From: Pecten maximus
Lineage: Eukaryota
NCBI RefSeq assembly: GCF_902652985.1
Contig: NC_047019.1
Coordinates: 14,190,097 to 14,254,096, forward strand
DNA length: 64,000 nt
Direction of reading: 5' to 3'
Part shown: positions 5,226 to 64,000 of the stretch, in pieces
Position numbering within the stretch: the first letter of the stretch is position 1
Layout of the letters: each line of letters opens with the position of its first letter
Notes under the pieces: generated by a model
The model's input: only the letters and a program-made list of their open reading frames with translations
Databases searched by the model: none
Told to the model about the DNA's origin: nothing
Translations under genes and position numbers: made by a program

Positions 5226-5659
5226 AGTCGGCTTTCTGAAGGGTGAGCTACATATGCAGATACTAAAGGGTTATCGAGAAGGGGTGATCACTACTATGGT
5301 AGTGAATGACACAGGGCTGATGGTGAGCCAATTGAGAGAACAGGGTCAATGGTCTTACACTGGTTGAATACAATCTATGATATCACAGGGCTTATCAAAC
5401 TTATATTTACAGAGTAGATACAAGTTTGATACGACATAGGTGTTGATATACACAGGGTTATACACAAATCAGGGACATTTATAACACGGCCTTGACCAGG
5501 TTATACACACCTAATTACTACCAGATATACCGGGGTGATAAACACTGAACCACACGGCATATCACAGGTTCTAAAAGGTTTTTCAATTGAACTAGGTCAT
5601 GTGACCAAGGGCTTGATAATACAGTAAATAACTGGATCACATGGGATATATACAATCAA
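5226..5659. repeat. Degenerate satellite-derived spacer, paralogous to 6866-7265
   Basis: The blocks 'cagggtcaatggtcttacact...aatacaatctat' and 'cttgaccaggt...cacctaattac...ccagatatacc...gataaacactg(a/c)accaca' appear in the same order at 6866-7265. Confidence 0.7.
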
Positions 5660-6312
5660 GGTATACAACACAGGGGCTTGATACCACACAGGGGCTAGAT
5701 ACCACACAGGGGTTTGATACCACACAGGGGCTTGATACTACACAGGGGCTTGATACCACACAGTGGCTTGATATCACACAGGGGCTTGATACCATACAGG
5801 GGCTTGATACTACACAGGGGCTAGATACCACACATGGGCTTAATACTACACAGGGGCTTGATACTACACAGGGGCTAGAAACCACACAGGGGATTGATAC
5901 CACACAGGGGCTTGATACCACACATGGGCTTGATACCAAACAGGGGCTTAATACTACACATGGGCTTGATACTACACAGGGGCTAGATACCACACAGGGG
6001 CTTGATACCACACAGGTGTTTGATACTTCAAAGGGGCTTGACACCACACAGGGACTTGATACCACACATGGGCTTGATACCAAAATGGGGTTTAATACTA
6101 CACAGGGGCTTGATACCACACAGGGGCTTGATACTACACCGAGGCTTGATACTACACAGGGGCTAGATACCACACAGGGGCTAGATACCACACAGGAGCT
6201 TGATACCACACAGGGGCTTGACACCACACAGGGACTTGATACCACACAGGGGCTTGATACCACAAGGGCTTTATACTACACAGGGGCTTGATACCACACA
6301 TGGGTTAGACAC
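5660..6312. repeat. Continuation of the 20-bp satellite
   Basis: Same monomer as 1-5225. Confidence 0.95.
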
Positions 6313-7469: not shown

Positions 7470-8640
7470 AATACAACTAACTTTACTAAGTACCTCAAAA
7501 TGATCAGTAGGGTATTTATGGTACAAGTAACAATGTGTTCTGACAAGATGAGTAGGTTTTTTATGGTACAAGTACCAATGTTTTTCGACAAGATGAGTAG
7601 GGTATTTATGGTACAAGTACCAATGTGTTCTGACAAGATGAGTAGGGTATTTATGGTAGAAGTTTCAATGTGTTCTGACAAGATGAGTAGGGTATTTATG
7701 GTACAAGTACCAATGTGTTCTGACCAGATGAGTAAGTTATTTATGGTACAAGTACCAATGTGTTCTGACAAGATGAGTAGGGTATTTATGGTACAAGTAC
7801 CAATGTGTTCTGACAAGATGAGTAGGGTATTTATGGTACAAGTTTCAATGTGTTCTGACAAGATGAGTAAGTTATTTATGGTACAAGTACCAATGTTGTC
7901 CCACAAGATGAGTAGGGTATTTATGGTACAAGTACCAATGTGTTCTGACAAGATGAGTAGGTTATTTATGGTACAAGTTTCAATGTGTTCTGACAAGATG
8001 AGTAAGTTATTTATGGTACAAGTACCAATGTGTTCTGACAAGATGAGTAGGGTATTTATGGTACAAGTACCAATGTGTTCTGACAAGATGAGTAGGGTAT
8101 TTATGGTACAAGTTTCAATGTGTTCTGACAAGATGAGTAGGGTATTTATGGTACAAGTACCATTGTTGTCCCACAAGATGAGTAGGGTATTTATGGTACA
8201 AGTACCAATGTGTTCTGACAAGATGAGTAGGTTATTTATGGTACAAGTACCAATGTGTTCTGACAAGATTAGTAGGTTATTTATGGTACAAGTACCAATG
8301 TGTTCTGACAAGATGAGTAGGGTATTTATGGTACAAGTACCAATGTGTTCTGACAAGATGAGTAGGGTATTTATGGTACAAGTTTCAATGTGTTCTGACA
8401 AGATAAGTAGATTATTTATGGTACAAGTACCAATGTGTTCTGACAAGCTGAGTAGGGTATTTATGGTACAAGAACCAATGTGTTCTGACAAGATTAGTAG
8501 GTTATTTATGGTAGAAGTACCAATGTAGTCCAACAGGTTGAGTAGGGTATTTATGGTACAAGAACCAATGTACTCTGACAAGATGAGCAGGGTATTTATG
8601 GTACAAATACCAATGAAGTGTGATGTCTGACATGATGTGT
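7470..8640. repeat. Tandem 45-bp satellite, about 26 copies
   Basis: The unit 'gacaagatgagtagggtatttatggtacaagtaccaatgtgttct' has a 45-bp period. The 15-aa periodicity in the ORFs on both strands is an artefact of this. Confidence 0.95.
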
Positions 8641-9298: not shown

Positions 9299-9737
9299 AT
9301 GGATTCCGATGAAGATGATCGTATTGGTTTTGAAAACCAGGCCAGGATGGATCCATTTGATGTGATTATCAATGATCTCATTATGGAATTAGATGCTGAT
9401 GATTTGATATTCAATGAGGTTGTCAACCTGTCAAAGACTCCACTTGGGTTTTCTCATGATTTAAAATCTGGTGAAGAATATTTCAGACTTCTGGGGAATA
9501 ACTTGGGTAAGGAAGACATGCTGGATTTTCTGATTAATGTGACAGATTATCAGAACTGGCATTGTGACTTTGGTACTGAGAGGGTAGCAGACAGACTAAA
9601 GAAATACAAAGATAAGCTTGAGAAACACAAACAACAATGGAGGAGGAAGGACATTTTTGATCCCAATTTTGTTGGAAGGGACAAAGAAATCAACTCTATC
9701 ATGGAAGGAGTGCAGAATGAACACGGCACATTCACAG
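9299..9737 (+). CDS. NB-ARC/TPR STAND NTPase gene, coding exon 1 (ATG at 9299). It encodes an N-terminal domain of about 145 aa that is a possible death-fold.
   Basis: The ORF starts at the ATG. The donor is cacag|gtaagt at 9738 and leaves phase 1. The exon ends in 'FVGRDKEINSIMEGVQNEHGTFTG', which leads into the P-loop. An acceptor-like 'catttgtag' at 9190 suggests an upstream 5'UTR exon. Confidence 0.8.
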
Positions 9738-9938
9738 GTAAGTCATGAGAATCCTTTATAAAAAAGGCAACCACTGATGTGATATATGGTGGCATCAATA
9801 TTTTACTTTTAATTTGTTGCGACTGGATAGAAAAATCAATAATTTAACGTGTTGGGACTAGATAGAAAAATCAATAATAATGACTGAACTTGATGGTGTT
9901 TAAAAATACCATATTTACCCACAAATCATTCCTTCTCT

Positions 9939-14408: not shown

Positions 14409-15460
14409 AGCTCACCTGGTCCGAAGGACCATGGTGAGCTTATGCCATACTGTAGCATCTGTCGTCCGTCGTCCGTCCGTCCGTCCGTCCGTCAACAATT
14501 TACTTCTTCTTCATAACCACAGATCAGAATTTGACCAAATTTGGTCAGAAGCATCCCTATGGGGTGGGGGACTCAAAATTGTACAAATGGTGGGGCTGAC
14601 CCCCCAGGAGGCTATATTGATATAAATAGCTTCTTCTCTGAAACAAACAATGGATATCACTCATATTTGCCTGGTAGCATCACTATGGGGTGGGGATTCA
14701 AAATTGTAAAGATGATGGGGCTGACCCCCAGGGGCCTGAGGGGCGGGGCAAAATGTGGTCAATTTGGCTATATTGAATAAACGACTTCTTTTCTGAAACT
14801 GAGCAATGGATATCGCTCATATTTGCCTGGTAGCTAGCATCCATAGGGAGTGGGGATTTAAAATTGTACAAATGGTGAGGCTGACTCCCAGGGGGTCTGA
14901 GGGACGGGGCAAAGATGGGTCAATTTCGCTATATTGATATGAACAACTTCTCCTCTGAAACTAAGCAATTCATATCACTCATATTTGACTGGTAGCATCC
15001 CCTTGGGTTAAGGATTCAAAATTGTACAAATTACGGGGCTGACCCCTGGAGGCTGAGGGGCGGAGCCCAAAGGGGTCAATTTGGCTAAATTGATATGAAC
15101 AACTTCTTCTCTGAATCAACTCATATTTGTCTGATAACATCCTTTTGGGTAGGGATTCAAAATTTTATAAAAGAAGGAACTGACCCAAAGGGGGCAGAGG
15201 GCGGGGTCAATTGGTTTAAACAACTTCTTTTCTGAAACTAATCAATGAATATCACTCACATATGTGTCGTAGTATCCTTATGGGGTTGGGCAAAAAGTCA
15301 ATTTCATTTCATGGATTAATGCATTTTTTAGCATAAAAATCTCACATACCCATATAAAATGCCTATAATATATTGACATAGCAATACCAGTGACAAATAT
15401 ACTTAAGCATCATTTTTGTTTCATATCATGAAAACCAGGTGAGCGATACAGGGCCTCTTG
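14409..15460 (-). mobile_element. Helentron-like non-autonomous element (HINE), copy 1, in NB-ARC intron 5
   Basis: It has a terminal hairpin 'agctcacctggtccgaaggaccatggtgagct', a (gtcc)n microsatellite at 14458-14492, and an internal tandem array of about 150 bp with 5 copies. The other terminus is 'ccaggtgagcgatacagggcctcttg'. It is flanked by T on both sides, consistent with a TT target. Confidence 0.65.
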
Positions 15461-15844
15461 TTTTAAAATTGTCATAGATGATTGTTTATTTTTATTTATC
15501 TTCTTTTTTTTTTTTTAACATTTAAACATTTCAATTTGTATTAAATGTTTAAACAGTACATTTTTCAACAGGTACGCTCAACCAAAATTCTCCTCATGGG
15601 TAGTGGTGTTCAGTCACATGACTGGGGATTATTCCAAAGTCATGTAACTTAATATTATTTTTCATCTCTTGCAGATTGGTAGATTACTTAATGCTTTAAT
15701 ATTTCGATTCTATCAGTCAAAGCTCTCATTATTTTCCAGAAAATTAAAACAAGTAGCAACACATTTGTATACTGGTTAGATTTATATCTGATATCCGATT
15801 GTGAAAAATATAATACTCTATACCTGATTATGTGTCTCCTGCAG

Positions 15845-17420
15845 GGGTTGGTATCAGAAGAGGAGTGTTATTGCCTGGTTAAACTGACTGAGAGGAACCC
15901 CCTGGCTTTACGTACAATATGTAGTATTCTGAAAAACTGCTGCAGACAGGTAAAGCCAGCTGAGGTGATTAGACATCTGAGGAGCAATGAAGGAAAACTG
16001 TCCATGGTTGGTATGGAAAAATGCCTCCAGGAGAGTTTCGATAGACTTGAAGATAGCATGAAAAATATTCTGATACAGTTGACATTGTTCAAGACCTCAC
16101 CTTTTGACATCAATGCTGCCAGTGAAGTTTTAAGGGCTGACAATACTCCAAAACCACAAATTTTGCTGACAAAGATGAATCTATTCCATTTGAAAAGCCG
16201 TCACCTTATTGAAGTCCAAGATACGACCATTCAGACAGAAGGAAACCTGAAACAGAACATCCAGCCCAGACCTGAAGAATTGGGAAACATCAACAGAAAT
16301 GTCCTGTATTCCCTACATCCCCTGGTGTTTGAGTTTCTAACCAAACAAAAAAGTCAAATGTCAGCAGTATTGATGCCTGCAAAAATAAGGTTTTTTGAAT
16401 ACATGGAAAGAATTATTGGAATAATCGGAAAGGAGCAAGAAAATTATTATTATAGCACTCAGCTGTATCTAAGAGAGTATCACGTACATATTCAGAGCTA
16501 TTTTGACATTACATTAGAGCTTCAGGGAGATATTGAGACCAGAAGAGTAAATATGACCACATCAAACCGAATTTTGGAGATAGGCCGACGAGTCCTTAAT
16601 CAGGACGGGCAGCTACGATGGCTTCAGTGGGTTACAGATAGAGCTGAACGAAATGGCCAAGTTGATCAGTGGGTCTTCTACCGTGGCTACATGATACAAT
16701 TGCTGACAGAAATGGATACAATTTCTGACATACCAAGCATCATGGATGTTACCGAAAGAAAACTTGATATGAAACTGAGGAGACCTGATACTGGTATGAA
16801 AGTAGCTTTAGGAAATTATCACCATAAAAAGGCAATGTACTTCAAAAAAATAGATAATCGACAGAAGGTCATCGAAAACTTGGAAAAGGCTAGGCAGTAT
16901 TTAGAGGATGAGGACATCAGACCAATGACAAACATGGTTATGATACTTGCCAATGTTTACAACGACCTTGGGTGTTCGTATTATCTACATGATTCAGAGA
17001 AGTGCAGAAGCTATCATGAAAAAGCGATTTCAAAATCGTTAGAAGAACACCCAGATGTGGACATGTTCAAAAACAATCTTGCTGTTTGTCAGTTAAAAGA
17101 TATATTGGACCAGACTTTAGAGCAGTCATCCCGAGATGAGAACATCGAAGAGACACTTGAACATTTCAGCAATGTAATAGCAAAAGGAAGACGGCAAGGC
17201 ACAGATAATACAGATTCACACACAGTAGCTCTGAGAAACAGATCAACATTGTATCTGCACTTAAAACGGTACGAGGAAGCATATTCTGATGCTAAAAAGA
17301 GTCTTGAAGTGCGAAAAAAGATTTTGAAGGACCCGCATGAGGACTTGACTTTGAGCTGTAGCCACGTGGCCCGTATTTTGTATAACTGGGGCGACCAGCA
17401 GATACGCAGTGGGAATATAG
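15845..17420 (+). CDS. NB-ARC gene exon 6: GLPLA-like motif, winged-helix/helical region and TPR-like repeats
   Basis: The acceptor is ctcctgcag|G. A 1.6-kb ORF encodes 'TERNPLALRTICSIL' followed by TPR-like helices (for example ALGNYHHKKAMYF..., ALRNRSTLYLHLKRYEEAYSDAKKSLEV). The donor is atag|gtttgt at 17421 (phase 1). Confidence 0.8.
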
Positions 17421-17465
17421 GTTTGTATTAATTTTCATGTACCCCTCTTTGACATAGGTTTCATA

Positions 17466-19221: not shown

Positions 19222-19882
19222 AGCTAACCTGGTCCGAAGGACCAAGGTGAGCTTATGCCATACCGTGGCGTCTGGCGTCTGGCGTCCGTCGTCCGTCGTC
19301 CATCCGTCTGTCAACAATTGACTTATTTGACTTCTTTTTCATAACCGCTGATCGGAATTTCACCAAATTTGGTCAGAAGCATCCCTATGGGTAGGGGACT
19401 CAAAATTGTACAAATGGTGGGGCTGACCCCCCCAGGTGCCTGAGGGGTGGGGCCAAATGTGGTCAATTGAGCTATATTGATATAACGACTTCTCTGAAAC
19501 CAAGCAATGGATACAGCTCATATTTGTCTGGTAGCACCTACTTGGGGTAGGAATTCAAAATTGTACAAATGGTGGGGCTGACCCCCTGGAGGGCTGAGGG
19601 GCGGGGCCAAACAGGGTCAATTTGGCTAAATTGTTATAAACAACTTCTCCTCTGAAACTAAGCAATGGATATTGCTCATATTCGCCTGGTAGCATCCCCT
19701 CGGTGTAGAGATTCAAAATTGTACAATTGGTGAGGCTGACCCCCTGGGGAATGTTCATGTACCCATATAAAATGCTTATGATATATTGACATAGCAATAC
19801 CAGTGACAAATATACTTAAACATAGTTCTTGTTTCATATCTCATGAATCCAGGTGAGCGATACAGGCCCTCTGGGCCTCTTG
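19222..19882 (-). mobile_element. Helentron-like element copy 2, in NB-ARC intron 8, ending 36 bp before the acceptor
   Basis: It has the same hairpin (agctaacctggtccgaaggaccaaggtgagct), a (gtcc)n tract, tandem subrepeats and the 'caggtgagcgatacaggccctctgggcctcttg' terminus. Confidence 0.65.
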
Positions 19883-19918
19883 TTGTTTTTGTGAGACCTC
19901 ATGTACTTATATTAACAG

Positions 19919-26544: not shown

Positions 26545-27059
26545 ACCTGGTGTGGTGTCCGTCTGTCCGTCTAGCGTCATTTTTTTCCAATTAAACAAAT
26601 TCTTTTTAATACCCAAAAGGCCCAGAGTACTGATATTGGGCCTATAGCATGCTGGGATGAAGGGCTACCATGTATATTAAAATGAATGACCTTGACCTAC
26701 ATTCAAGGGCACAGGGATTAAAGAGGCTAAAATCTTATGAATGACTTCTTCACAGAAACCAAGAGGCCCAGAGTACTGATATTGTAGCATGCTGGAGTGA
26801 AGGGCCAGACAGTTTGTTTAAATTAATGACCTTGACCTAAATTCATGGTCACAGGGGTCAAAATATTTTAAAATAAAATCTTTAAACAATGATTTCTCGA
26901 TGACCATGGGACGCAGATACCTGATATTCTGCCAGTGGTACAAAATTCATTTAAATCAAAATATAGTGGTTATCAGCATTTATTCAACATAAATGATCTA
27001 GAACAATTTCGAAGTTACATCAAAAGCAGGTGAGTGATAAAGGCCCATTGGGCCTCTTG
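26545..27059 (-). mobile_element. Helentron-like element, truncated at the hairpin end
   Basis: It has a (gtcc)n-like start 'ggtgtccgtctgtccgtc', 3 tandem units of about 155 bp, and the conserved terminus 'caggtgagtgataaaggcccattgggcctcttg' followed by TT. Confidence 0.5.
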
Positions 27060-27367
27060 TTTATTAGCACATTATACATGTAATCTGGTTTATGTATATC
27101 ATAAGCATGTAAAATAGATCTTCAGAATAGCTATATCGTTAGCTGCACATATAGGTATCATTAGCACATCATGATAGCTATATCATTACCACATTATTAT
27201 AGCATATAAAAGCAATAACATAGTTCAAGTTCTTTATTGACTTTGAGTCTTCTGACTCATCAGTATCATATACATACATAATATACTTATTTACATAACA
27301 TTGACAACATCAAACAAAGCAAGAAAACATAAATTCGTTCCAGAGACAATATACTCGGAGAACATAA

Positions 27368-33964: not shown

Positions 33965-34081
33965 ATGGCAGCCGGTCGCGACCGTTTGTCCAGACTGCTA
34001 ATTAGGTTGGTCAACACTGATTGTGGCGACCAGGACTACCTGGATTCGTCGTTACTTCGTCTGGACAATCTGGCCATTAAG
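33965..34081 (+). CDS. Small basic protein gene, exon 1 (ATG at 33965; an alternative in-frame ATG lies at 33950)
   Basis: aaaATGg is a Kozak-like context. The exon encodes MAAGRDRLSRLLIRLVNTDCGDQDYLDSSLLRLDNLAIK. The donor is aag|gtagga (phase 0). An acceptor-like 'tatatttccaag' lies at about 33940, just upstream. Confidence 0.5.
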
Positions 34082-34731
34082 GTAGGAGGAATGAGTCATC
34101 GCTATAGCGAGTCCAGTAGACTCGTCTTAGACTGAACTTACTAGCAGGGGAAAGTAATCTTGGTAACGTTGGATCAGGCGACGTTGACGTCATTTCGTCA
34201 TCCATTTTCCCGCTGAAACTTCGATCGCGTAGGAATATTTACAAAGTTGTAAGGTTATTTTTGATTGGCTAATAGATTGATCAGAATTCTAATATTGTCT
34301 GTGCAAAAATAGAATTAAATTTTGCACAGGCAAAAATAATTTTTCATATGCAAAAATATTTAATTATGACACACTATTTTTAAGCTTCCCGCGCCAAACA
34401 AGTACGTCATTCTAAAACTCGGGTTAGAGCATGTAACTGAATGGAAGGTCACATCACAGATTCATTCAAATGTTGGCATGCATCTACTGTACATGTAGCA
34501 CCAGTATTCATTAATAAATATCAAAAAGAAAATAACTACTTTTCCCATCCAACTCCTCTCTGGCAATTCCCCTGCAAATGGTTGGCCAGTACCATAATTC
34601 GATTTCGCCGGCATCCATCTTTGGTGACCGTAGTAAATATTACGGTCACCACTGTGTACACACTGATTATTGTAAAAGTACATGAATTAGAATTATATGT
34701 GTTGCATTATAAATCTGTTTCAGATGGTAAG

Positions 34732-34810
34732 ACACTGTTGGTGAACCCCGACTGTAATGCTGTAATTCTACAGGATTACGTGAGGAGGTCGTGTGGTATC
34801 AAGTCTACAG
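34732..34810 (+). CDS. Small basic protein gene, exon 2 (the acceptor is uncertain: 34732 is phase-consistent; 34724 after tttcag is not)
   Basis: The donor is tacag|gtaggt at 34811. The exon encodes TLLVNPDCNAVILQDYVRRSCGIKST, which repeats the LVN-x-DC...DY motif of exon 1. A total CDS of 642 nt (3x214) holds only with the 34732 start. Confidence 0.45.
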
Positions 34811-34875
34811 GTAGGTCTCTATAATGGCTTTATAACGTCAAACTGAGCAACGAATTAATAGTCGGTATAAATAAA

Positions 34876-37800
34876 CAAGAGGCCCATGGGCCTTAACGGT
34901 CATCTGACAAACACTTACACTTACAGCAGGGACACACCCCTCAATCCAGCATTATTACCATAAATTATTTATCGCAGCCAGTTATGTTTTAGATCAAATT
35001 TGGTTTTTATCCATTTAGCTTGTCCAGGAAGAGCAGCATCATAAAGCAAAATTTTAGCCAAGTTCCCATTTTTGGGGCATGCCCCTCTGTCCCAATAGGT
35101 CAGACAAGACTCATTTATATCAATTAGGATTGCCTTTCCCCAATGATGTTTCATACTAAATATAGTTGTAATCAATTAAGGCATTAAGGAGGAATTGCAT
35201 TTTAAAGAAATATTTAACCTAAGCGCTCCTTTTGCCCCATCTTTTTTTCCCCAGGGGTCAAACCTGTCTCATTAAAAAATATGATTGCCGTCACCTTATG
35301 TTTCACATCAAATTAGGTTGTAATCCACCAAAAGGTTAGGGAGGATTAGGATTTAACAGCAAATATTCACCAAAGTTCCCCTTTTGGGGCCCTGCCCCTC
35401 AGGCCCCAGGGGTCACACTAGCCTCGTTTATATAAAATATGACCACCCTTCCCAAAGGATGTTTCACACCATATTTCGTATTAATCCACCCAAGGGTTAG
35501 AGAGAAGTAGGATTTATAGCAAAAATTCACCAAAGTTCCCCTTTTGGGGCCCCGCCCCTCTGGCCCTAGGGGTCAAACCAGCCTCATTTATATAAAATAT
35601 GATTGTCCTCCTCCAATGATGTTTCACACCAAATTTGGTAATAATTCACTATGGGGGTTAGGAGGAGTAGTATTTTAAAGCAAAATTTCATCAAAGTTCC
35701 CCTTTTGGGGCCCTGGGCCCATATTCATAAAAAAACTTAAGTTAAGTATTTCACTTAAGAAAATACTTAAGTAGGACATTTGTACTTAAGTACTAAAATA
35801 AACTTAAGTATTTACTTAATTCAAGGTTTTATCTTAAGTTGTATTCATAAAACTACTTAAGCTTAAGTATTACTTAAGTTTTTACTTAAAGTTAAGTAAC
35901 GTCACGAGGATGTTTAACTTCCTTTAAAAATACTTAAGTAAATACTTAACAACTCAGGTGAAAGATGTCTTCACGAAATCGACAGAAATCAAATTGTTTT
36001 TAAGAAAAAAAATCATTAACTTCAGATTTTGTTGTATTCCATCATTTAAAACAAGATGTAAAGGTTTGAATCGAAGATGGAGGAGTCAATCTCACTGTCG
36101 TTAAGGCCCATTACGAAGTCAATACTACAACGACACGGAGCAATTGTAGTTTATAAGAAACATACCCATATACCAATCAAATTCTATTTAGATAAAACTT
36201 CATTTTTGTTTCTCTTGCTGACTTTGACAAAGCAGAAATACTGCCTCAAAGTTTTATTGTATCTTTTATTCATTAATCTAAAAAAATGTATATCTATAGA
36301 GTTCTTACCTGTGTATTAAAAAACATTGTGGTTACTTGTACTTTAACTTAAAACCCGTTCATGTGCATTCCAGCCCTGTCATGTAGTACTCCCCTGCTTT
36401 GATAACGAAACGAAAGTTTTAAATAACAGTTGATTGTTGTGACAGTTCTAGCATGCTTGGGGGTGGGATTTTACAGATCGTACAATGTAACTAGGGGTTT
36501 GATATGTACATTTCAACTGATGTTTGGTTTAGTGGAAATCAACTAAAACGTACTTGTTCTCCTTGACTCTACGATGAACACGATATGTGCATTTTTGGCC
36601 TGAACGACGAGGTTAGTCTAATTTTCGTGCATTCTTCCGACTCTCTCCTGATTAATACATTTGATCTGTTCAATCTGCCGGCAACCTGAACCCACGCTTG
36701 CCTATTTGCAGATGCCGACATTCCGTCCTTAAATCGTCCACGTATGACATGTTTACTTTCACTTGTAAACATGTACTAGCCTCACCATCGCCAGACATTC
36801 GTCCTTTGTCCAGTTTGGTCATCTCATCTTTTTTGCTGTTGCCATTTCCGGATTCTGATCGTCTTGGAATGCCAGGAACGCCGGTGCCAAATTTCACGTT
36901 TTACGAAAAACATCACGCAGCTACTTAACAACAACATAGCAACTACATGAAATACTTAAATGTTTATACTTAGCTAAGTATGTACTAAGTAAATACTTAA
37001 GTCGTTTATGAATAGTACTTAAGTTCAAACTTGAGTTTTATTTAACTAAGTAAAATATTTATAGTTAAGTATAACTTAAGTCAAACTTAAGTATTTAACT
37101 TAAGATTTTTTATGAATATGGGCCCTGCCCTTCTGGCCCCAGGGGCCACACCAGCCTAATTTATATAAAATATGACCACCTTCCCCCAATGATGTTTCAC
37201 ACCATATCTTGTTGAAATCCACCAAAGGGTTAAGGAGGAGTAGGATTTTATAGCAAAATTTCATCAAAGTTCCCCTTTTGGGGCCCTGCCCCTCTGGCCC
37301 CAGGGGCCACACCAGCCTCATTTATATAAAATATGACCACCCTCCCCCAATGATGTTTCACACAATATCTGGTTGAAATCCACCAAAGGGTTAAGGACGA
37401 GTAGGATTTTATAGCAAAATTTCATCAAAGTTCCCTTTTTTTGGCCCGTCACTCTGGCCCCAGGGCTCACACCAGCCTCATTTATATAAAATATGACCAC
37501 CCTCCCCCAATGATGTTTCACACCAAATTTAGTTGTAATCCACCAAAGGGTAAAGGAGGAGTAGGATTTTATAGCAAATATCCACCAAAGTTCCCTATTT
37601 AGGGCCCGCGAGGCCCCTCTGGCCCTAGGGGTCAGACCAGCCTCGTTTATATAAAACATGATTGTCCTCCTCCAACGATGTTCCACACCAAATTTTGTAA
37701 TAATCTACTTTTGGGTTTTGGAGGAGTAGTATTTTAAAGCAAAATTTCATCAAAGTTGCCCTTTTGGGGCCCCGCATCTCTGGCCCCAGGGGTCACACTA

Positions 37801-38477
37801 GCCTCATTTATATAAAATATGACCACCCTCCCCAAATGATTTTTCACAACATATCTGGTTGAAATCTACTAAAGGGTTAAGGAGGAGTAGGATTTTATAG
37901 CAAAATTTCATAAAAGTTCCCCTTTTGGGGCCCCACCCCTCAGGCCCCAGGGGTCACACTAGCCTCATTTATATAAAATATGACCACCCTCCCCAAATGA
38001 TTTTTCACAACATATCTGGTTGAAATCTACTAAAGGGTTAAGGAGGAGTAGGATTTTATAGCAAAATTTCATAAAAGTTCCCCTTTTGGGGCCCCGCCCC
38101 TCAGGCCCCAGGGGTCACACCAACTTCATTTATATAAAATATGACCGCCCTCCCCCAATGATGTTTCACACCAAATTTAGTTGTAATCCACCCAAGGGTA
38201 AAGGAGGAGTAGGATTTTATAGCAATATTCACCTAAGTTCCCTTTTCGGCGCCCCGCCCTTCTGGCCCCAGGGGTCAGACCAGCCTCATTTATATAAAAT
38301 ATGATTGCCCTCCCCCAATGATGCTTCAAACCAAATTTGGAAGTAATCCACCCAAGCGTTAATGAGGAGTAGCGTTTTGAAAGAAAAAGTTTACGGACGG
38401 CGCACGGCGGACGGCGGACGACGACGGACGAAGCACGATGACTATAGGTCATCCTGACCCTTTGGGTCAGATGACCT
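34876..38477 (+). mobile_element. Helentron-like element carrying a satellite array of about 160 bp (about 20 monomers) and a nested 1.4-kb TIR transposon. It sits in intron 2 of the small-protein gene.
   Basis: The 5' terminus is 'caagaggcccatgggcc'. The 3' end has (ggac)n at 38398-38431 and the hairpin 'aggtcatcctgaccctttgggtcagatgacct' ending at 38477. A 160-bp unit 'ccccttttggggccccgcccctctggccccaggggtcacac...' occupies 34990-38400. The element is inserted between A|A (T|T on the other strand). Confidence 0.65.
35715..37125. mobile_element. Nested non-autonomous DNA transposon with perfect 20-bp TIRs (gggcccatattcataaaaaa / ttttttatgaatatgggccc)
   Basis: It interrupts one 160-bp satellite monomer, and the flanks reconstitute the monomer with a 3- to 5-bp duplication (ctg/ccctg). 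The interior is rich in the 'acttaagt' palindrome. It has no recognisable transposase ORF. Confidence 0.65.
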
Positions 38478-39125
38478 AATAAATACTAATATTCTTTGAT
38501 CTCTGTCCTTTCCAGCAGTTACTTACATCTGGTAGCTCTAATATATCACCTGATGATAATATATCTTAACAAAAATTCATAATTGTAACATTTTATCTAC
38601 TAATAAATTGAATTAAAACCCGACATAACTCAAATCTGTAAGTACACTCCCTGCACTATATTTTTTTGCTTGGTGTGATGATGTTTAAGCTTGAGTGTTA
38701 ATTTGAACAAATGTGTGCATCGAGTTATTATATGTACTGTATGTTAAAAAGAAATGGTGTGTAAATGTGTGTAACTTACCAGGTAAATGAGTATGTATTT
38801 GTGGGTCATGTTCCAATTTTCGTCGATTTTGATCAACATGTATTCACCGGATTCACAGGAAAAGGCTTGTATAGGCTTGCATGTTGTCTAATCATTTTGT
38901 ACAATTTGTGAAATAGAATTTATTGAAATGAAACGATTAAAGCAAGTATTTTAATTTCGATAGTCCATCGCTGGTATGCAGTATAGAACAAGTATATACC
39001 ATTGTGTACATATCTCATGTTTTACTTTGAAATCTACAGCACTATTGATTAATCTCACAAATATAAATTTCAATATTAATGAAAAAACATTATCTAATAT
39101 GAACTGTTAACGTGTGTTGGTACAG

Positions 39126-39245
39126 TGACAATCGACTTTAGTGATGAAAATGCTGTTCTGACGGAGCTGTTCAGTAAACCCCCACAGGAGAACATGTTTG
39201 ATTTCTTCATGCCACGCAGCACATTTGTACTGGTACAGATTGACC
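39126..39245 (+). CDS. Small basic protein gene, exon 3
   Basis: The acceptor is gttggtacag|tg and the donor is gacc|gtaagt. The exon encodes VTIDFSDENAVLTELFSKPPQENMFDFFMPRSTFVLVQID. Confidence 0.65.
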
Positions 39246-39904
39246 GTAAGTCTCATTAAAAAAACACCATGTATTAGAAAGTATGTATGTGATTTTTTTA
39301 GTTAAGTGAAAAATGATTTTTGTTTGTTTGGGAGTTATTATGGTATGTAATTCAAAAGAGGCAACAACAATTTTTAACCCTCTTGTTGTTAATAAATGCC
39401 TCAGAAAATAAAATATTTTACATTATACAGTTTTGGGTTATCTCCCCTACATAGTAGTTTTGAGTGTGACCCAATCGAGTCAAGAAATACACAAATTAAC
39501 TTTTAAATTTTCCGTTAAAGCATTTTTAGATTTAAAGATTAAAAGAAAAATCTATCTTATTTACTATGAAAAAAAACAACAAAAAAACAAAACAAAACAA
39601 CAATTTTTTTAGAGATTTACAGTAATATATTTAAATAGATCACTTGAGAATTTCTGAATAACACTGTTCCTTGTCATATAAAATTGAGTTAATTTGTTTT
39701 CAAAGTGATTTAAAGATTAGAAAACATATCTTAGTTCCTATGAAAAAATAAGTTAAGGAATTAACTTATGCTTATGAATATTGAAGGCCCAGTACATTTT
39801 AATGCTCCTTAGAACAACTGAGAGATTTACACTAATCAACAGCTTGAGAACCCTGTTCATTGGTGATCTATATGTCAACTTATTTTCAATGTGTATTACT
39901 ACAG

Positions 39905-39979: not shown

Positions 39980-40648
39980 GTAAGTTTGATGTAACACATT
40001 TCAATCAAGAAATAAGATTTGTAGGTCACAGGTGTGAGGACATACAAGTTAATGCCATTGGTGTACCCTTAAAGGTCTTCCAAATACTCAGTTTAGCTAG
40101 TAGCTTGATTGGAAACCAACCATCAATTTGCTTTAACAAATGACCTTGAATCAAGGCCTAGAGGCCAATATGATATTCAGATTTTAGCGTTCTAGCAGAA
40201 AGATGATCAAATTTATAAAAATGACCTTATGATCTTGATCAGCATTTCATGGTTTTAAACAAGGTGAACCTGTAGTTTTTCTGAATAGATGACCACACTT
40301 TAATTTGATCTGTTGCATGCAAGAGTGAATGTTGATTTGGCATTGCCCCAACCAGAGACCTATACATGCACTTAATTTCATATGCAAAATCAAAGTGAAA
40401 TAGTATGATGTTTGTTTATTGGATTTATCTCCCCCTGAACAACCAGGGTCATTTTGCATTGAGATCGCCTTAAATTGTAGTAGTTGGTGACTTCCTCACT
40501 GAACAACATATGGGATGCCTGTCGCATGCCATCAAAAGCAATAAGGGTAAAGCGTCTTGCCCTAGGACACAATAACAACAGTACAGACTGCAATTGCATG
40601 GATCATATTGCTGTGATAATTATTATTGGATACATGTGAAATGTTTAA

Positions 40649-41624
40649 CAAGAGGCCCAGAGGGCCTGTATTGCTCACCTGGATTTCATGAGATATGAAA
40701 CAAGAATGATGATTAATTATAAGTATATTTGTCACTGGTATTGCTATGTCAATATATCATAGGCATTTTATATGGGTACGTGAGGATTTTATGTCAAAAA
40801 ATGCATTAATCCATGAAATAAAATTAACTTTTGGCACAACCCCATAGGGATGCTACCACACAAATGTGAGTGATATCCATTGCTTAGTTTCAGAAAAGAA
40901 GTTGTTTAAACCAATTGACCCCTTTTGAACCCGCCCTCTGCACCCCTGGGGGAGTGGGGGTCAGTTCCTTCCTTTATAAAATTTTGAATCCCTACCCAAA
41001 AGGATGCTACCAGGCAAATATGAGCGATATCCTTTGCTTAGTTTCAGAAAAGAAGTTGTTCATATCAATTCAGCCAAATTGACCCCTCTTGGCCCCGCCC
41101 CTCAGGCCCCCGGGGGGGTCAGCCTCACCATTTGTACAATTTTGAATGCCCACCCAATAGTGATGCTACCAGGCAAATATGAGCGATAGCCATTGCTTGG
41201 TTTCAGAGAAGAAGTCGTTTATATCAATATAGCCAGATAGACCACATTTGGCCCCGCCCCTCAGGCCCCTGGGGGGTCAGCCCCATCATTTGTACAATTT
41301 TGAATCCCCAACCCATAGCGATGCTACCAGGCAAATATGAGTGATAGCCATTACTTGGTTTCAGAGAAGAAGTCGTTTATATCAATAGCGCAAAAATGAC
41401 CCCTTTTGGCCCCGCCCCAGAGGCCCCCAGGGGGTCAGCCCCATCATTTGTACAATTTTGAGTCCCCTACCCATAGGGATGCTTCTGACCAAATTTGGTC
41501 AAATTCTGATGTGTGGTTATGAAGACGTCAATTGTTGACGGACAGACGGACGACAGACGACGGACGGACGACAGACGCAACAGTATGGCATAAGCTCACC
41601 TTGGTTCTTCGGACCAGGTGAGCT
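40649..41624 (+). mobile_element. Helentron-like element copy 3, in intron 4 of the small-protein gene, ending 26 bp before the acceptor
   Basis: The 5' end is 'caagaggcccagagggcctgtattgctcacctgg'. It has 4 to 5 tandem units of about 150 bp, a (gacg/ggac)n tract, and the 3' hairpin 'agctcaccttggttcttcggaccaggtgagct'. The flanks are A|A. Confidence 0.7.
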
Positions 41625-41650
41625 AACAAAGGATGTCTAATGTTTTACAG

Positions 41651-49206: not shown

Positions 49207-52175
49207 ACCCTGTACATACCTGTTTGTGACAGGGTGGTACTGTAGGGCCCTGTACATACCTGTTTGTGACAGAGTAGCACTGTAGGGCCCTGTACATACC
49301 TGTTTGTGACAGAGTGGCACTATAGGGCCCTGTACATACCTGTTTGTGACAGGGTGGCACTGTAGGGCCCTGTACATACCTGTTTGTGACAGAGTGGCAC
49401 TGTAGGGCCCTGTACATACCTGTTTGTGACAGAGTGGCACTGTAGGGCTCTGTACATACCTGTTTGTGACAGAGTGGCACTATAGGGCCCTGTACATACC
49501 TGTTTGTGACAGGGTGGCACTGTAGGGCCCTGTACATACCTGTTTGTGACAGAGTGGCACTATAGGGCCCTGTACATACCTGTTTGTGACAGAGTGGCAC
49601 TATAGGGCCCTGTACATACCTGTTTGTGACAGAGTAGCACTGTAGGGCCCTGTACATACCTGTTTGTGACAGAGTGGCACTATAGGGCCCTGTACATACC
49701 TGTTTGTGACAGGGTGGCACTGTAGGGCCCTGTACATACCTGTTTGTGAAAGAGTGGCACTGTAGGGCCCTGTACATACCTGTTTGTGACAGAGTGGCAC
49801 TGTAGGGCCCTGTACATACCTGTTTGTGACAGAGTGGCACTATAGGGCCCTGTACATACCTGTTTGTGACAGGGTGGCACTGTAGGGCCCTGTACATACC
49901 TGTTTGTGACAGAGTGGCACTATAGGGCCCTGTACATACCTGTTTGTGACAGAGTGGCACTGTAGGGCCCTGTACATACCTGTTTGTGACAGGGTGGCAC
50001 TGTAGGGCCCTGTACATACCTGTTTGTGACAGAGTAGTACTGTAGGGCCCTGTACATACCTGTTTGTGACAGGGTGGCACTGTTGGGCCCTGTACATACC
50101 TGTTTGTGATAGAGTGGCACTGTAGGGCCCTGTACATACCTGTTTGTGACAGAGCAGTACTGTAGAGCCCTGTACATACCTGTTTGTAACAGGGTGGCAC
50201 TGTTGGGCCCTGTACATACCTGTTTGTGACAGGGTGGCACTGTAGGGCCCTGTACATACCTGTTTGTGACAGAGTAGTACTGTAGGGCCCTGTACATACC
50301 TGTTTGTGACAGGGTGGCACTGTAGGGCCCTGTACATACCCGTTTGTGACAGGGTGGCACTGTAGGGCCCTGTACATACCTGTTTGTGACAGAGTGGCAC
50401 TGTAGGTCCCTGTACATACCTGTTTGTGACAGAGTGGCACTGTAGGGCCCTGTACATACCTGTTTGTGACAGAGTGGCACTGTAGGGCCCTGTACATACC
50501 TGTTTGTGACAGAGTGGCACTATAGGGCCCTGTACATACCTGTTTGTGACAGGGTGGCACTGTTGGGCCCTGTACATACCTGTTTGTGACAGAGTGGCAC
50601 TGTAGGGCCCTGTACATACCTGTTTGTGACAGAGTAGTACTGTAGGGCCCTGTACATACCTGTTTGTGACAGGGTGGCACTGTAGGGCCATGTACATACC
50701 CGTTTGTGACAGGGTGGCACTGTAGGGCCCTGTACATACCTGTTTGTGACAGAGTGGTACTGTAGGGCCCTGTACATACCTGTTTGTGACAGGGTGGCAC
50801 TGTAGGGCCCTGTACATACCTGTTTGTGACAGGGTGGCACTGTAGGGCCCTGTACATACTTGTGTGTGACAGGGTGGCACTGTAAGGCCCTGTACATACC
50901 TGTTTGTGACAGGGTGGCACTGTAGGTCCCTGTACATACCTGTTTGTGACAGAGTGGTACTGTAGGGCCCTGTACATACCTGTGTGTGACAGGGTGGCAC
51001 TGTAGGTCCCTGTACATACCTGTTTGTGACAGAGTGGTACTGTAGGGCCCTGTACATACCTGTTTGTGACAGGGTGGTACTGTAGGGCCCTGTACATACT
51101 TGTGTGTGACAGGGTGGCACTGTAAGGCCCTGTACATACCTGTTTGTGACAGGGTGGCACTGTAGGTCCATGTACATACTTGTGTGTGACAGGGTGGTAC
51201 TGTAGGTCCCTGTACATACCTGTTTGTGACAGGGTGGCACTGTTGGTCCCTGTACATACCTGTTTGTGACAGGGTGGCACTGTAAGGCCCTGTACATACC
51301 TGTTTGTGACAGGGTGGCACTGTAGGTCCCTGTACATACCTGTTTGTGACAGGGTGGTACTGTAGGGCCCTGTACATACCTGTTTGTGACAGAGTGACAC
51401 TATAGGTCCCTGTACATACCTGTGTGTGACAGGGTGGCACTGTAGGTCCCTGTACATACCTGTTTGTGACAGAGTGGCACTGTAGGGCCCTGTACATACC
51501 TGTGTGTGACAGGGTGGCACTGTAGGTCCCTGTACATACCTGTTTGTGACAGGGTGGTACTGTAGGGCCCTGTACATACATGTTTGTGACAGAGTGGCAC
51601 TATAGGGCCCTGTACATACCTGTGTGTGACAGGGTGGCACTGTAGGTCCCTGTACATACCTGTTTGTGACAGAGTGGCACTGTAGGGCCCTGTACATACC
51701 TGTTTGTGACAGAGTGGCACTGTAGGGCCCTGTACATACCTGTTTGTGACAGAGTGGTACTGTAGGTCCCTGTACATACCTGTTTGTGACAGAGTGGCAC
51801 TGTAGGGCCCTGTACATACCTGTTTGTGACAGGGTGGCACTGTAGGCTCCTGTACATACCTGTTTGTGACAGAGTGGCACTGTTGGGCCCTGTACATACC
51901 TGTTTGTGACAGAGTGGCACTATTGGGCCCTGTACATACCTGTTTGTGACAGAGTGGCACTATAGGGCCCTGTACATACCTGTTTGTGACAGGGTGGCAC
52001 TGTAGGCTCCTGTACATACCTGTTTGTGACAGAGTGGCACTGTTGGGCCCTGTACATACCTGTTTGTGACAGAGTGGCACTTTTGGGCCCTGTACATACC
52101 TGTTTGTGACAGAGTGGCACTGTAGGGCCCTGTACATACCTGTTTGTGACAGGGTGGCACTGTAGGCTCCAAGGT
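49207..52175. repeat. 40-bp satellite A, about 74 monomers, inside an intron of the large gene. Each minus-strand monomer contains a donor-like aacag|gtatgt and an acceptor-like tgtacag.
   Basis: The plus-strand unit is 'ccctgtacatacctgtttgtgacagRgtggcactgtaggg'. The minus strand is open in all 3 frames, giving the 892-aa ORF artefact. Confidence 0.95.
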
Positions 52176-53015: not shown

Positions 53016-53830
53016 CTGTATACAAACATGGATAATATCATTAATTACTAACATCTTATAATTATATACAAACATGGATAATATCATTAATTACTAATAT
53101 CTTATAATTATATACAAACATGGATAATATCATTAATTACCAACATCTTATAATTATGTACAAACAAGGATAATATCATTAATTACTAACATCTTATAAT
53201 TATGTACAAACATGGATAATATCATTAATTACTAACATCTTATAATTATGTACAAACATGGATAATATCATTAATTACTAACATCTTATAATTATGTACA
53301 AACATGGATAATATCATTAATTACTAATATCTTATAATTATGTACAAACATGGATAATATCATTAATTACTAACATCTTATAATTATGTACAAACATGGA
53401 TAATATCATTAATTACTGTCCTGTATACAAACATGGATAATATCATTAATTACTAACATCTTATAATTATGTACAAACATGGATAATATCATTAATTACT
53501 GTCCTGTATACAAACATGGATAATATCATTAATTACTAATATCTTATAATTATATACAAACATGGATAATATCATTAATTACTAATATCATATAATTATG
53601 TACAAACATGGATAATATCATTAATTACTAATATCTTATAATTATGTACAAACATGGATAATATCATTAATTACTAATATCTTATAATTATATACAAACA
53701 TGGATAATATCATTAATTACTAACATCTTATAATTATGTACAAACATGGATAATATCATTAATTACTAATATCTTATAATTATGTACAAACATGGATAAT
53801 ATCATTAATTACTAATATCATATAATTATG
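53016..53830. repeat. 47-bp minisatellite, about 17 copies, starting exactly at the 3' splice site of exon 52775-53015. Units include acceptor-like 'tgtatacag' variants.
   Basis: The unit is 'acaaacatggataatatcattaattactaacatcttataattatRta'. Copies at about 53400 and 53500 carry 'cctgtatacaaacatgg', whose minus strand reads ccatgtttgtatacag|g. Confidence 0.9.
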
Positions 53831-59280: not shown

Positions 59281-62200
59281 AGTGACTGTATCAACACAAT
59301 TGTCATGTAAGTACTATGACTGTATCCATACATCCACACAATTGTCATGTAAGTACTATGACTGTATCCATACATCCACACAATTGTCATGTAAGTACTA
59401 TGACTGTATCCATACATCCACACAATTGTCATGTTAGTACTATGACTGAATCCATACATCCACACAATTGTCATGTAAGTACTATGACTGTATCCATACA
59501 TCCACACAATTGTCATGTAAGTACTATGACTGTATCCATACATCCACACAATTGTCATGTTAGTACTATGACTGTATCCATACATCCACACAATTGTCAT
59601 GTTAGTACTATGACTGTATCCATACATCCACACAATTGTCATGTTAGTACTATGACTGAATCCATACATCCACACAATTGTCATGTAAGTACTATGACTG
59701 TATCCATACATCCACACAATTGTCATGTAAGTACTATGACTGTATCCATACATCCACACAATTGTCATGTAAGTACTACGACTGTATCCATACATCCACA
59801 CAATTGCCATGTAAGTACTATGACTGTATCCATACATCCACACAATTGTCATGTTAGTACTATGACTGTATCCATACATCCACACAATTGTCATGTTAGT
59901 ACTATGACTGAATCCATACATCCACACAATTGTCATGTAAGTACTACGACTGTATCCATACATCCACACAATTGTCATGTTAGTACTATGACTGTATCCA
60001 TACATCCACACAATTGTCTTGTACGTACTATGACTGTATCCATACATCCACACAATTGTCATGTAAGTACTACGACTGTATCCATACATCCACACAATTG
60101 TCATGTAAGTACTATGACTGTATCCATACATCCACACAATTGTCATGTTAGTACTATGACTGAATCCATACATCCACACAATTGTCATGTAAGTACTACG
60201 ACTGAATCCATACATCCATACAATTGTCATGTAAGTACTATGACTGTATCCATACATCCACACAATTGCCATGTAAGTACTATGACTGTATCCATACATC
60301 CACACAATTGTCATGTAAGTACTATGACTGTATCCATACATCCACACAATTGTCATGTAAGTACTATGACTGTATCCATACATCCACACAATTGTCATGT
60401 AAGTACTATGACTGAATCCATACATCCATACAATTGTCATGTAAGTACTACGACTGAATCCATACATCCACACAATTGTCATGTAAGTACTATGACTGTA
60501 TCCATACATCCACACAATTGTCATGTTAGTACTATGACTGAATCCATACATCCACACAATTGTCATGTAAGTACTACGACTGAATCCATACATCCATACA
60601 ATTGTCATGTAAGTACTATGACTGTATCCATACATCCACACAATTGCCATGTAAGTACTATGACTGTATCCATACATCCACACAATTGTCATGTACGTAC
60701 TATGACTGTATCCATACATCCACACAATTGTCATGTAAGTACTATGATTGTATCCATACATCCACACAATTGTCATGTAAGTACTATGACTGTATCCATA
60801 CATCCACACAATTGTCATGTAAGTACTATGACTGTATCCATACATCCACACAATTGTCATGTTAGTACTATGACTGTATCCATACATCCACACAATTGCC
60901 ATGTAAGTACTATGACTGTATCCATACATCCACACAATTGTCATGTAAGTACTATGACTGAATCCATACATCCACACAATTGTCATGTAAGTACTATGAT
61001 TGTATCCATACATCCACACAATTGTCATGTAAGTACTACGACTGTATCCATACATCCACACAATTGTCATGTAAGTACTACGACTGTATCCATACATCCA
61101 CACAATTGTCATGTTAGTACTATGACTGAATCCATACATCCACACAATTGTCATGTAAGTACTATGACTGAATCCATACATCCACACAATTGTCATGTTA
61201 GTACTACAACTGTATCCATACATCCACACAATTGTCATGTTAGTACTATGACTGTATCCATACATCCACACAATTGTCATGTTAGTACTATGACTGAATC
61301 CATACATCCACACAATTGTCATGTAAGTACTACAACTGTATCCATACATCCACACAATTGTCATGTAAGTACTATGACTGAATCCATACATCCACACAAT
61401 TGTCATGTTAGTACTATGACTGAATCCATACATCCACACAATTGTCATGTTAGTACTATGACTGAATCCATACATCCACACAATTGTCATGTTAGTACTA
61501 TGACTGAATCCATACATCCACACAATTGTCATGTAAGTACTATGACTGAATCCATACATCCACACAATTGTCATGTTAGTACTATGACTGAATCCATACA
61601 TCCACACAATTGTCATGTTAGTACTATGACTGAATCCATACATCCACACAATTGTCATGTAAGTACTATGACTGAATCCATACATCCACACAATTGTCAT
61701 GTTAGTACTACAACTGTATCCATACATCCACACAATTGTCATGTACGTACTATGACTGAATCCATACATCCACACAATTGTCATGTTAGTACTATGACTG
61801 TATCCATACATCCACACAATTGTCATGTAAGTACTATGACTGAATCCATACATCCACACAATTGTCATGTTAGTACTACGACTGAATCCATACATCCACA
61901 CAATTGTCATGTAAGTACTATGACTGTATCAATACATCCACACAATTGTCATGTTAGTACTATGACTGAATCCATACATCCACACAATTGTCATGTTAGT
62001 ACTATGACTGAATCCATACATCCACACAATTGCCATGTAAGTACTATGACTGAATCCATACATCCACACAATTGTCATGTTAGTACTATGACTGAATCCA
62101 TACATCCACACAATTGTCATGTAAGTACTATGACTGAATCCATACATCCACACAATTGTCATGTAAGTACTATGACTGAATCCATACATCCACACAATTG

Positions 62201-64000
62201 TCTTGTAAGTACTATGACTGAATCCATACATCCACACAATTGCCATGTAAGTACTATGACTGAATCCATACATCCACACAATTGTCATGTAAGTACTATG
62301 ACTGTATCCATACATCCACACAATTGTCATGTAAGTACTATGACTGAATCCATACATCCACACAATTGTCATGTTAGTACTACAACTGTATCCATACATC
62401 CACACAATTGTCATGTTAGTACTATGACTGTATCCATACATCCACACAATTGTCATGTTAGTACTATGACTGAATCCATACATCCACACAATTGTCATGT
62501 TAGTACTATGACTGAATCCATACATCCACACAATTGCCATGTAAGTACTATGACTGTATCCATACATCCATACAATTGTCATGTAAGTACTATGACTGTA
62601 TCCATACATCCACACAATTGTCATGTAAGTACTATGACTGTATCCATACATCCACACAATTGTCATGTAAGTACTATGATTGTATCCATACATCCACACA
62701 ATTGTCATGTAAGTACTATGATTGTATCCATACATCCATACAATTGTCATGTTAGTACTATGATTGTAACCATACATCCATACAATTGTCATGTTAGTAC
62801 TATGACTGAATCCATACATCCATACAATTGTCATGTAAGTACTATGACTGTATCCATACATCCACACAATTGTCATGTAAGTACTATGACTGTATCCATA
62901 CATCCACACAATTGTCATGTAAGTACTATGATTGTATCCATACATCCACACAATTGTCATGTAAGTACTACGACTGTATCCATACATCCACACAATTGCC
63001 ATGTAAGTACTATGACTGAATCCATACATCCACACAATTGTCATGTTAGTACTATGACTGAATCCATACATCCACACAATTGTCATGTTAGTACTATGAC
63101 TGAATCCATACATCCACACAATTGCCATGTAAGTACTATGACTGTATCCATACATCCACACAATTGCCATGTACGTACTATGACTGTATCCATACATCCA
63201 CACAATTGTCATGTTAGTACTATGACTGAATCCATACATCCACACAATTGTCATGTTAGTACTATGACTGAATCCATACATCCACACAATTGCCATGTAA
63301 GTACTATGACTGTATCCATACATCCACACAATTGCCATGTAAGTACTATGACTGTATCCATACATCCACACAATTGTCATGTAAGTACTATGACTGTATC
63401 CATACATCCATACAATTGTCATGTAAGTACTATGACTGTATCCATACATCCACACAATTGTCATGTTAGTACTATGACTGTATCCATACATCCACACAAT
63501 TGTCTTGTAAGTACTATGACTGAATCCATACATCCACACAATTGCCATGTAAGTACTATGACTGTATCTATACATCCATACAATTGTCATGTAAGTACTA
63601 TGACTGTATCCATACATCCATACAATTGCCATGTAAGTACTATGACTGTATCTATACATCCATACAATTGTCATGTAAGTACTATGACTGTATCCATACA
63701 TCCATACAATTGTCATGTAAGTACTATGACTGTATCCATACATCCACACAATTGTCATGTAAGTACTATGACTGTATCCATACATCCATACAATTGCCAT
63801 GTAAGTACTATGACTGTATCTATACATCCATACAATTGTCATGTAAGTACTATGACTGTATCCATACATCCACACAATTGTCATGTAAGTACTATGACTG
63901 TATCCATACATCCATACAATTGCCATGTAAGTACTATGACTGTATCCATACATCCACACAATTGTCATGTAAGTACTATGACTGTATCCATACATCCATA
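59281..64000. repeat. 40-bp satellite B, about 118 monomers, running to the window edge
   Basis: The unit is 'atccatacatccacacaattgtcatgtaagtactatgactgt'. It resembles satellite A in the acatacc/acatcca...ttgtgaca/ttgtca blocks. The 877- and 688-aa ORFs are artefacts. Confidence 0.95.

Follow-up and report, generated by a model that had tools for sequence, protein, structure and literature searches.

A HINE-borne tandem array of units of about 160 bp, split by a putative NuwaI-type transposon, in a scallop intron

Where does a tandem array of about 160 bp units in a scallop intron come from, and is it a satellite growing inside a transposon or a part that the transposon brought with it? The array lies in a CXorf65/C22orf15-like gene of Pecten maximus, within a 64,000-nucleotide stretch of contig NC_047019.1 (positions 14,190,097 to 14,254,096 of the forward strand; hereafter the window, to whose own numbering coordinates refer unless another sequence is named), and is interrupted by a second transposon. 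By its sequence organisation, the surrounding element is a HINE, a non-autonomous Helentron: every structural module of a bivalve HINE is present, and in the published order, which bears out a first-pass annotation of this DNA that had called the element Helentron-like. The repeats themselves are best read as a constitutive HINE module, carried in with the element and not born in this copy. We consider it highly probable that a lineage-specific HINE insertion with an array built in steps was followed by the later insertion of a NuwaI-type PHIS (PIF/Harbinger-ISL2EU-Spy) element.

The whole composite insertion spans positions 34875-38478 (3,604 bp) and comprises the HINE, the nested element and a duplicated CTG; the HINE proper, nested part excluded, measures 2,192 bp. 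The ends proposed in the first pass, 34876 and 38477, lie within 1-2 nt of these. The canonical orientation was assigned to the minus strand, on which all modules are annotated, because the published HINE scheme puts the microsatellite on the 5' side. Read 5' to 3' in that orientation, the element opens with a terminal TA, followed by the 11-nt 5' subterminal inverted repeat (subTIR) GGTCATCTGAC and a complementary inverted repeat (IR), which form a hairpin (38447-38478). The subTIR itself, within the 11-15 nt usual for HINEs, occupies 38466-38476, 3 nt inside the canonical 5' end, and the hairpin folds as DNA at -13.3 kcal/mol (z = -5.7), none of 200 shuffles folding as well. Next come a degenerate microsatellite (38394-38438) and then the array. 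The microsatellite, seen both in the sequence and as repeat family D11, is (GTCY)n in the element's own orientation, while the plus strand reads (ACGG/ACGA)n. The 3' subTIR (34898-34908) repeats the 5' one perfectly in inverted form, and the 3' terminus (34875-34893) consists of the palindrome AGGCCCATGGGCCT (34880-34893) followed by CTTGT(T). The end sequences are TAGGTCATCTGACCCAAAGGGTCAGGATGACC (5') and GTCAGATGACCGTTAAGGCCCATGGGCCTCTTGT (3'), and the flanks in canonical orientation are T-rich, with ...TATTTAT before the 5' end and T(T)ATTTAT after the 3' end.

Matches to the ends elsewhere in the window place the element among other HINEs. The exact subTIR 11-mer occurs only at 34898-34908 (+) and 38466-38476 (-); if one mismatch is tolerated, chance alone would give 0.82 matches. 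The terminus, of the form AAGAGGCCC-N3-GGGCCT, is common to other HINE copies: it also closes three of those in the window (19864-19881, 27041-27058 and 40650-40667), none being expected by chance. No long open reading frame (ORF) was found in the element. A search of 34000-39500 yielded no tRNA genes or Rfam families, so an origin from a short interspersed nuclear element or a tRNA is without support.

The insertion interrupts a protein-coding gene whose exons can be followed into other scallops. The exons directly upstream (34724-34810) and downstream (39126-39245) of the intron, both on the plus strand, together match Pfam PF15874 (the CXorf65 family, named Il2rg) with 50.3 bits against a cut-off of 27. 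They delimit an intron of 4,315 bp (34811-39125), of which the composite insertion makes up 3,604 bp. At least one further exon must lie upstream because the exon at 34724-34810 begins in phase 1; the earlier placement in intron 2 of a small-protein gene is thus right about the intron, and its number is plausible but not proven. A word-indexed protein search with the joined exons gave no match. A neighbouring ORF of 533 aa has its best matches in Mizuhopecten yessoensis (66% identity) and Ylistrum balloti (64%) by a full HMMER search; a word-indexed search with the same ORF was empty at a cut-off of 1e-10, probably too strict, and exact look-ups of the ORF and of XP_021359449 returned no record.

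Syntenic regions from these two species (L005 from M. yessoensis, L006 from Y. balloti) are both collinear with the window. The upstream exon has orthologues at L005 63436-63541 (78%) and L006 37631-37717 (85%), and the downstream exon at L005 63897-64038 and L006 38034-38171. In M. yessoensis the orthologous intron (L005 63534-63909) has a length of 376 bp, in Y. balloti one of about 320 bp, and neither contains a HINE or the 160-bp repeat. Since these introns are short and lack both sequences in two other scallop genera, the insertion is lineage-specific.

The array itself was delimited in two ways. Tandem Repeats Finder reports a period of 160 at 35298-35715 and of 161 at 37120-38372 (7.8 copies, 86% matches), and one monomer compared with the window by BLAST gives head-to-tail copies from 35046 to 38378 with a gap at 35714-37119, so that an array of about 160 bp units does lie where the first pass had put it. 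Monomer starts were anchored on the motif AAGTTCCC and counted in register. Twelve recognisable monomers, M01 to M12, start at 35060, 35221, 35373, 35533, 35694, 37267, 37428, 37588, 37753, 37914, 38075 and 38235, and a very degenerate thirteenth, M00, occupies 34900-35059; the array thus consists of 13 monomers, head-to-tail and in a single orientation. Its left part (34909-35715, minus strand) holds M00, M01-M04 and the left 22 bp of the split monomer M05 (35694-35715), and its right part (37128-38392, minus strand) the remaining 139 bp of M05 followed by M06-M12. The previous figure of about 20 monomers was too high, as the 2,192 bp of non-nested sequence can hold no more than about 13.7 units.

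A classical satellite is a long, homogeneous and typically heterochromatic array free of a mobile element, which the array here does not resemble: its monomers number 13, share 44-97% identity with one another, are bounded by HINE ends and lie in an intron. Two published PCR primers for BIV160, of the BIV160/Cg170 family of bivalve satellites with its two conserved motifs, gave best scores of 9-10 against the monomer consensus, not above shuffled controls, in a comparison that covered these two primers.

Relatives of the array indicate where its repeats came from. The first-pass annotation had named absence of the unit elsewhere in the genome as what would count against its reading, and, as far as the search reached, a homologous unit does occur in another scallop: a HINE of M. 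yessoensis (L005 about 34000-34650), whose 3' terminus (CAAGAGGCCCAGAGGGCCT) is of the AAGAGGCCC-N3-GGGCCT form and which has an (ACGG)n microsatellite, carries three monomers of about 158 bp that are homologous over their full length to the monomers here (66-74% identity, E about 1e-14, same orientation). The repeats were therefore inherited from a scallop HINE lineage. Matching the Mizuhopecten monomers type by type to the three monomer types described below gave no signal.

The window contains four further HINE copies, at 14409-15461 (+), 19223-19885 (+), 40647-41626 (-) and about 26550-27065 (+). The first three have another subTIR, CTCACCTGG, and another repeat of 156-158 bp in about 2-5 monomers. 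The 3' palindrome of the copy at 14409-15461 is truncated (15446-15456), and the copy ending at 27065 contains units related to the 145-bp repeats of which the Mizuhopecten locus has many. In length, the array studied here exceeds the other HINE arrays of the window and that of the Mizuhopecten relative by a factor of 3-6.

The two repeat families of the window share a G+C-rich box of 25 nt, CCCCTGGGGCCWGAGGGGCGGGGCC in canonical orientation, which is identical at 23 of 25 positions (alignment score 40 vs 15 ± 2 for shuffles). Judged by the element ends, it points the same way in both families, and the Mizuhopecten relative has it in that orientation too. The rest of the unit is weakly similar between the families, with none of 500 shuffles reaching the observed score. 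The box recurs once per monomer between 35378 and 38270, and is found at 14726-14749, 15040-15075, 19430-19454, 41083-41115 and 41250-41274. If loops of up to 12 nt are allowed, the canonical strand of the box makes a motif of the G-quadruplex type; seven of the window's 11 such motifs on the minus strand lie in this array, and none is strict (loops of 7 nt or less).

Searches with a 22-mer of the monomer and the 19-mer terminal inverted repeat (TIR) of the nested element found no match in viral collections and three bacterial matches in prokaryote genomes, where roughly 4 are expected by chance. A metagenome contig (L001, Ga0049107_10011813) matched the 22-mer by chance and was discarded, as it does not contain the repeat; it looks eukaryotic and does carry a HINE-like arrangement of its own, with a 145-bp tandem repeat beside (GACA)n/(TGTC)n microsatellites (3311-3755 and 4043-4082). 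Searching paper texts for the sequence strings returned irrelevant primer matches only.

How the array reached 13 monomers can be read in part from its internal order. Three monomer types follow one another as B-A-A-C, B-A-A-C, B'. The blocks M04-M07 and M08-M11 are 90% identical, and the adjacent A monomers are closer still, with 96% identity between M05 and M06 and 97% between M09 and M10, or 5-6 nt of difference within each pair; nine fixed differences separate one pair from the other. Decay is greatest in the edge monomers M00-M02 (44-75% identity to the rest). The simplest history of these patterns is one of repeated, stepwise turnover, in which a block duplication was followed much later by duplication of a single monomer, or local homogenisation, in each block. 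By this history, unequal exchange or replication slippage would have enlarged the array in steps: a block of three or four monomers would have been duplicated first, its two copies having since diverged by about 10%, and one monomer type would later have doubled within each block.

The second transposon splits M05. The first-pass annotation had described a nested stretch of 1,411 bp at 35715-37125 with perfect inverted ends of 20 bp, and these ends are present (GGGCCCATATTCATAAAAAA; 35715-35734 and 37106-37125), the match reaching 42 nt at 88%. The boundaries were refined to 35716-37124, an element of 1,409 bp with perfect TIRs of 19 bp (GGCCCATATTCATAAAAAA, 35716-35734 and 37106-37124), because with any other placement the ends lose their symmetry or the monomer is not restored. 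It is flanked by an inferred target-site duplication, CTG, at 35713-35715 and 37125-37127, within the 3 to 5 bp claimed before. Joining 35694-35715 to 37128-37266 yields a monomer of 161 bp with 96% identity to the one beside it, and the flanks thus rebuild the unit as had been stated.

Within the nested element, a decayed Myb/SANT-like DNA-binding coding remnant with frameshifts and stops (36540-36860, minus strand) matches Pfam PF13873 (Myb_DNA-bind_5; cut-off 21.7) with 35.3 bits when two frames are stitched together and with 22.2 bits over the uninterrupted ORF 36569-36772. Word-indexed protein and PDB sequence searches with the remnant gave no match. The two subterminal regions contain 10 of the window's 13 ACTTAAGT octamers, a clustering predicted for repeated binding sites. 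No long or transposase-sized ORF was found in the 1,409 bp, so the copy is taken to be non-autonomous, and no second copy was found in the window. Members of the NuwaI group of PHIS make 5'-CWG-3' duplications, have TIRs of 12-61 bp, carry a second ORF for a Myb/SANT protein and include a listed family from Crassostrea gigas (Han et al. 2015, PMC4482050). The nested element fits a non-autonomous, internally deleted copy of this type, resembling for example NuwaI-1_CGig in its CTG duplication, an instance of CWG, in a 19-bp TIR within the known range, in its Myb/SANT remnant and in its bivalve host. It differs in having no transposase ORF.

The events can be placed in a relative order, which is the part of an earlier claim to a datable sequence of events that stands; the nested insertion must be later than the monomer it splits, and absolute dates are not obtainable from the window. 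M06 starts with the same 22 nt as M05, target CTG variant included, and the M05/M06 duplication is for that reason most likely older than the nested insertion. CTG is found at the target position only in M03, M05 and M06, the other monomers having CCG or other variants, and it was probably created by a CpG-to-TpG change. In relative terms, the evidence supports a split from the Mizuhopecten and Ylistrum lineages, then the HINE insertion, then the M05/M06 duplication and lastly the nested insertion. The block duplication is older than the monomer duplication, and its timing relative to the HINE insertion cannot be told.

We therefore arrive at the following proposal. A HINE of the DINE-1/pearl/Cg_HINE type would have inserted antisense into the CXorf65-like gene of a pectinid scallop, in a T-rich stretch of a short intron, after the scallop's lineage had separated from Mizuhopecten and Ylistrum. 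It would have brought along central repeats of about 160 bp, lying between a 5' module (subTIR hairpin and (GTCY)n) and a 3' module (subTIR and palindrome) and belonging to a family older than the insertion and common to other scallops. After stepwise growth of the array, now of 13 monomers, a NuwaI-type PHIS element would have been cut and pasted into the CTG of one monomer's G+C-rich box, duplicating that CTG. The net outcome would be an intron enlarged from a few hundred bases (0.3-0.7 kb) to 4.3 kb, with no sign of a cellular function.

Several observations sit less easily with this proposal. The 3' palindrome folds at only -4.2 kcal/mol (z = -1.3), which is not significant alone. A 7-nt ATAAATA lies outside both HINE ends (34866-34872 and 38478-38484) and is readable as a duplication, though HINEs, which insert at T-rich or TT sites, make none; it may instead reflect a low-complexity, A/T-rich target. 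The HINE-free intron is too diverged from the two orthologous introns to align, giving no empty site at the nucleotide level, and the HINE boundaries, typical array length and family membership are drawn from one copy of the exact subfamily, just as the NuwaI assignment and the CTG duplication are drawn from a single nested copy. The nested TIR begins GGC (GGCCC), where NuwaI TIRs usually begin GGG (Han et al. 2015, PMC4482050). Finally, an 8-bp direct repeat, GGGCCCTG, stands on both sides of an alternative, asymmetric boundary (35708-35715 and 37120-37127), as it would if the nested element belonged not to PHIS/NuwaI but to a superfamily with 8-bp duplications such as hAT, and occupied 35716-37119. 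With that boundary, however, the ends are 5 nt out of register (GGCCCATATTCAT... vs ATATTCAT...), and a CTG duplication beside a TIR ending in GGCCC in a GGGGCCCTG target produces the 8-bp repeat automatically. A Myb/SANT second ORF, moreover, is found in PHIS elements and in no hAT element. The asymmetric ends and the Myb/SANT remnant make a hAT-like origin improbable, and the NuwaI-type assignment is preferred.

For the outer element, the array reaches the 3' subTIR directly, where the window's other HINE family has a unique spacer of about 150 bp. This would fit a free-standing satellite, or a recombinant of two different elements, whose HINE-like ends came from unrelated neighbouring fragments; such a history is very improbable given that the two ends carry a perfect 11-nt inverted pair otherwise unique in the window, that the monomers face the ends in the direction also seen in the window's other family and in the Mizuhopecten HINE, and that in two other genera the orthologous intron lacks the entire unit. 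Harder to dismiss, yet still rather unlikely, is that the 13-monomer array was transposed whole, with its block structure already in the source copy and no expansion at this locus. Oyster HINE arrays reach 29 monomers with intact ends still flanking them, monomer variants ordered at fixed positions are known from DTC84, and a single copy cannot separate duplications made at this locus from those made in its source. Long arrays are rare, however, and thought to lower mobility, arrays of at least five monomers making up 15.6% of those in oyster; all other HINE copies seen have about 2-5 monomers; and the youngest duplications (96-97% identity) are far younger than the block duplication, which indicates growth over a long time. 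It is from the rarity of long arrays and the short arrays of all relatives seen that we infer growth at this locus. Of the earlier claim of satellite expansion inside a transposon, the stepwise internal duplications stand, while the repeats are a standard HINE module and the place of their growth is undecidable from one copy. It also seems improbable that the G+C-rich box is a functional signal, serving the replication or recombination of Helentrons or acting as a G-tract that forms structures, and that it thereby promotes changes of array length and attracts insertions; in that event the locus would be the starting point of a new satellite, caught as a higher-order repeat emerges in it.

The surroundings of the locus are themselves rich in tandem repeats. 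Long minisatellites occupy 1-6304 (18 bp x 355), 7502-8615 (45 bp x 25) and 49208-52166 (40 bp x 74), with others at 53021-53830 (46 bp x 18) and 59290-63998 (42 bp x 112). Several of them lie in or near introns of a large minus-strand gene whose exons at 43.5-46.7 kb align to M. yessoensis Npa1/NopRA1 (URB1-like), and the Mizuhopecten locus is likewise full of arrays of 27-50 bp units. Large exons at 15830-17431 and 9299-9748 belong to an NB-ARC/TPR (NLR-like) gene; the proteins nearest to it come from scallops and pearl oyster and are annotated as no more than uncharacterised or NB-ARC domain-containing. The GenBank model OWF47468.1 of M. yessoensis (L005 10001-70159) joins an NB-ARC/TPR gene and the CXorf65-like (PF15874) gene into a product of 1,240 aa, while the Y. 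balloti annotation has two separate genes (L006 10001-30649 and 36877-40649); the Mizuhopecten model is probably a merge artefact.

The locus offers a clean, well-bounded example of Helentron-borne tandem repeats, of stepwise array growth and of a DNA transposon nested in another, and illustrates how an intron can grow. For repeat annotation, it suggests that such arrays should be masked as parts of HINEs and not called satellites. Views of satellite origin and of Helentron biology are unchanged by it, and the architecture is already well described in bivalves; what is seen here is a scallop HINE subfamily together with a scallop NuwaI-type element. No dedicated description of scallop HINEs was found in the searchable literature.

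Among known systems, the closest in organisation is Cg_HINE of Crassostrea gigas (Vojvoda Zeljko et al. 2020, PMC7492417; Repbase Helitron-N*_CGi). Bivalve HINEs have a central tandem array of 140-180 bp units as a constitutive module, and eleven Cg_HINE families are described from the Pacific oyster (PMC7492417). The module order is the same, with a 5' subTIR and IR, a (GTCY)n-type microsatellite, the array of 140-180 bp repeats, all in a fixed direction, and a 3' subTIR and palindrome, and so are the T-rich targets, the intronic copies and the short boxes conserved across families; oyster HINE repeats, too, have conserved boxes within otherwise diverged monomers (PMC7492417). The oyster arrays average 3.6 monomers, 15.6% having 5 or more, and the longest has 29.3 (PMC7492417), which places the 13 monomers found here in the upper tail of the oyster distribution, within the published range. 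The host differs, being a pectinid scallop, as do the sequences, and the likeness is to the published description, the consensus being given only in figures.

The MITE-like elements pearl (Crassostrea virginica), DTC84 (Donax trunculus) and MgE (Mytilus), which contain tandem repeats, resemble the scallop element in architecture: their core repeats measure about 160 bp, an (ACGG/ACGA)n microsatellite borders the array on one side, their flanks contain short inverted repeats and their monomer variants are ordered. Unlike the present element, they have at most 5-6 core repeats. HINE anatomy has been described for Drosophila DINE-1 and for mite HINEs (PMC4067079). DINE-1/DINE-TR1 of Drosophila (Thomas et al. 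2014, PMC4067079) are likewise non-autonomous Helentrons with subTIRs, an IR, a microsatellite, expandable central repeats and a 3' stem-loop, but they belong to another phylum, their sequences are unrelated, and the conserved DINE-1 core block has no counterpart in the scallop element.

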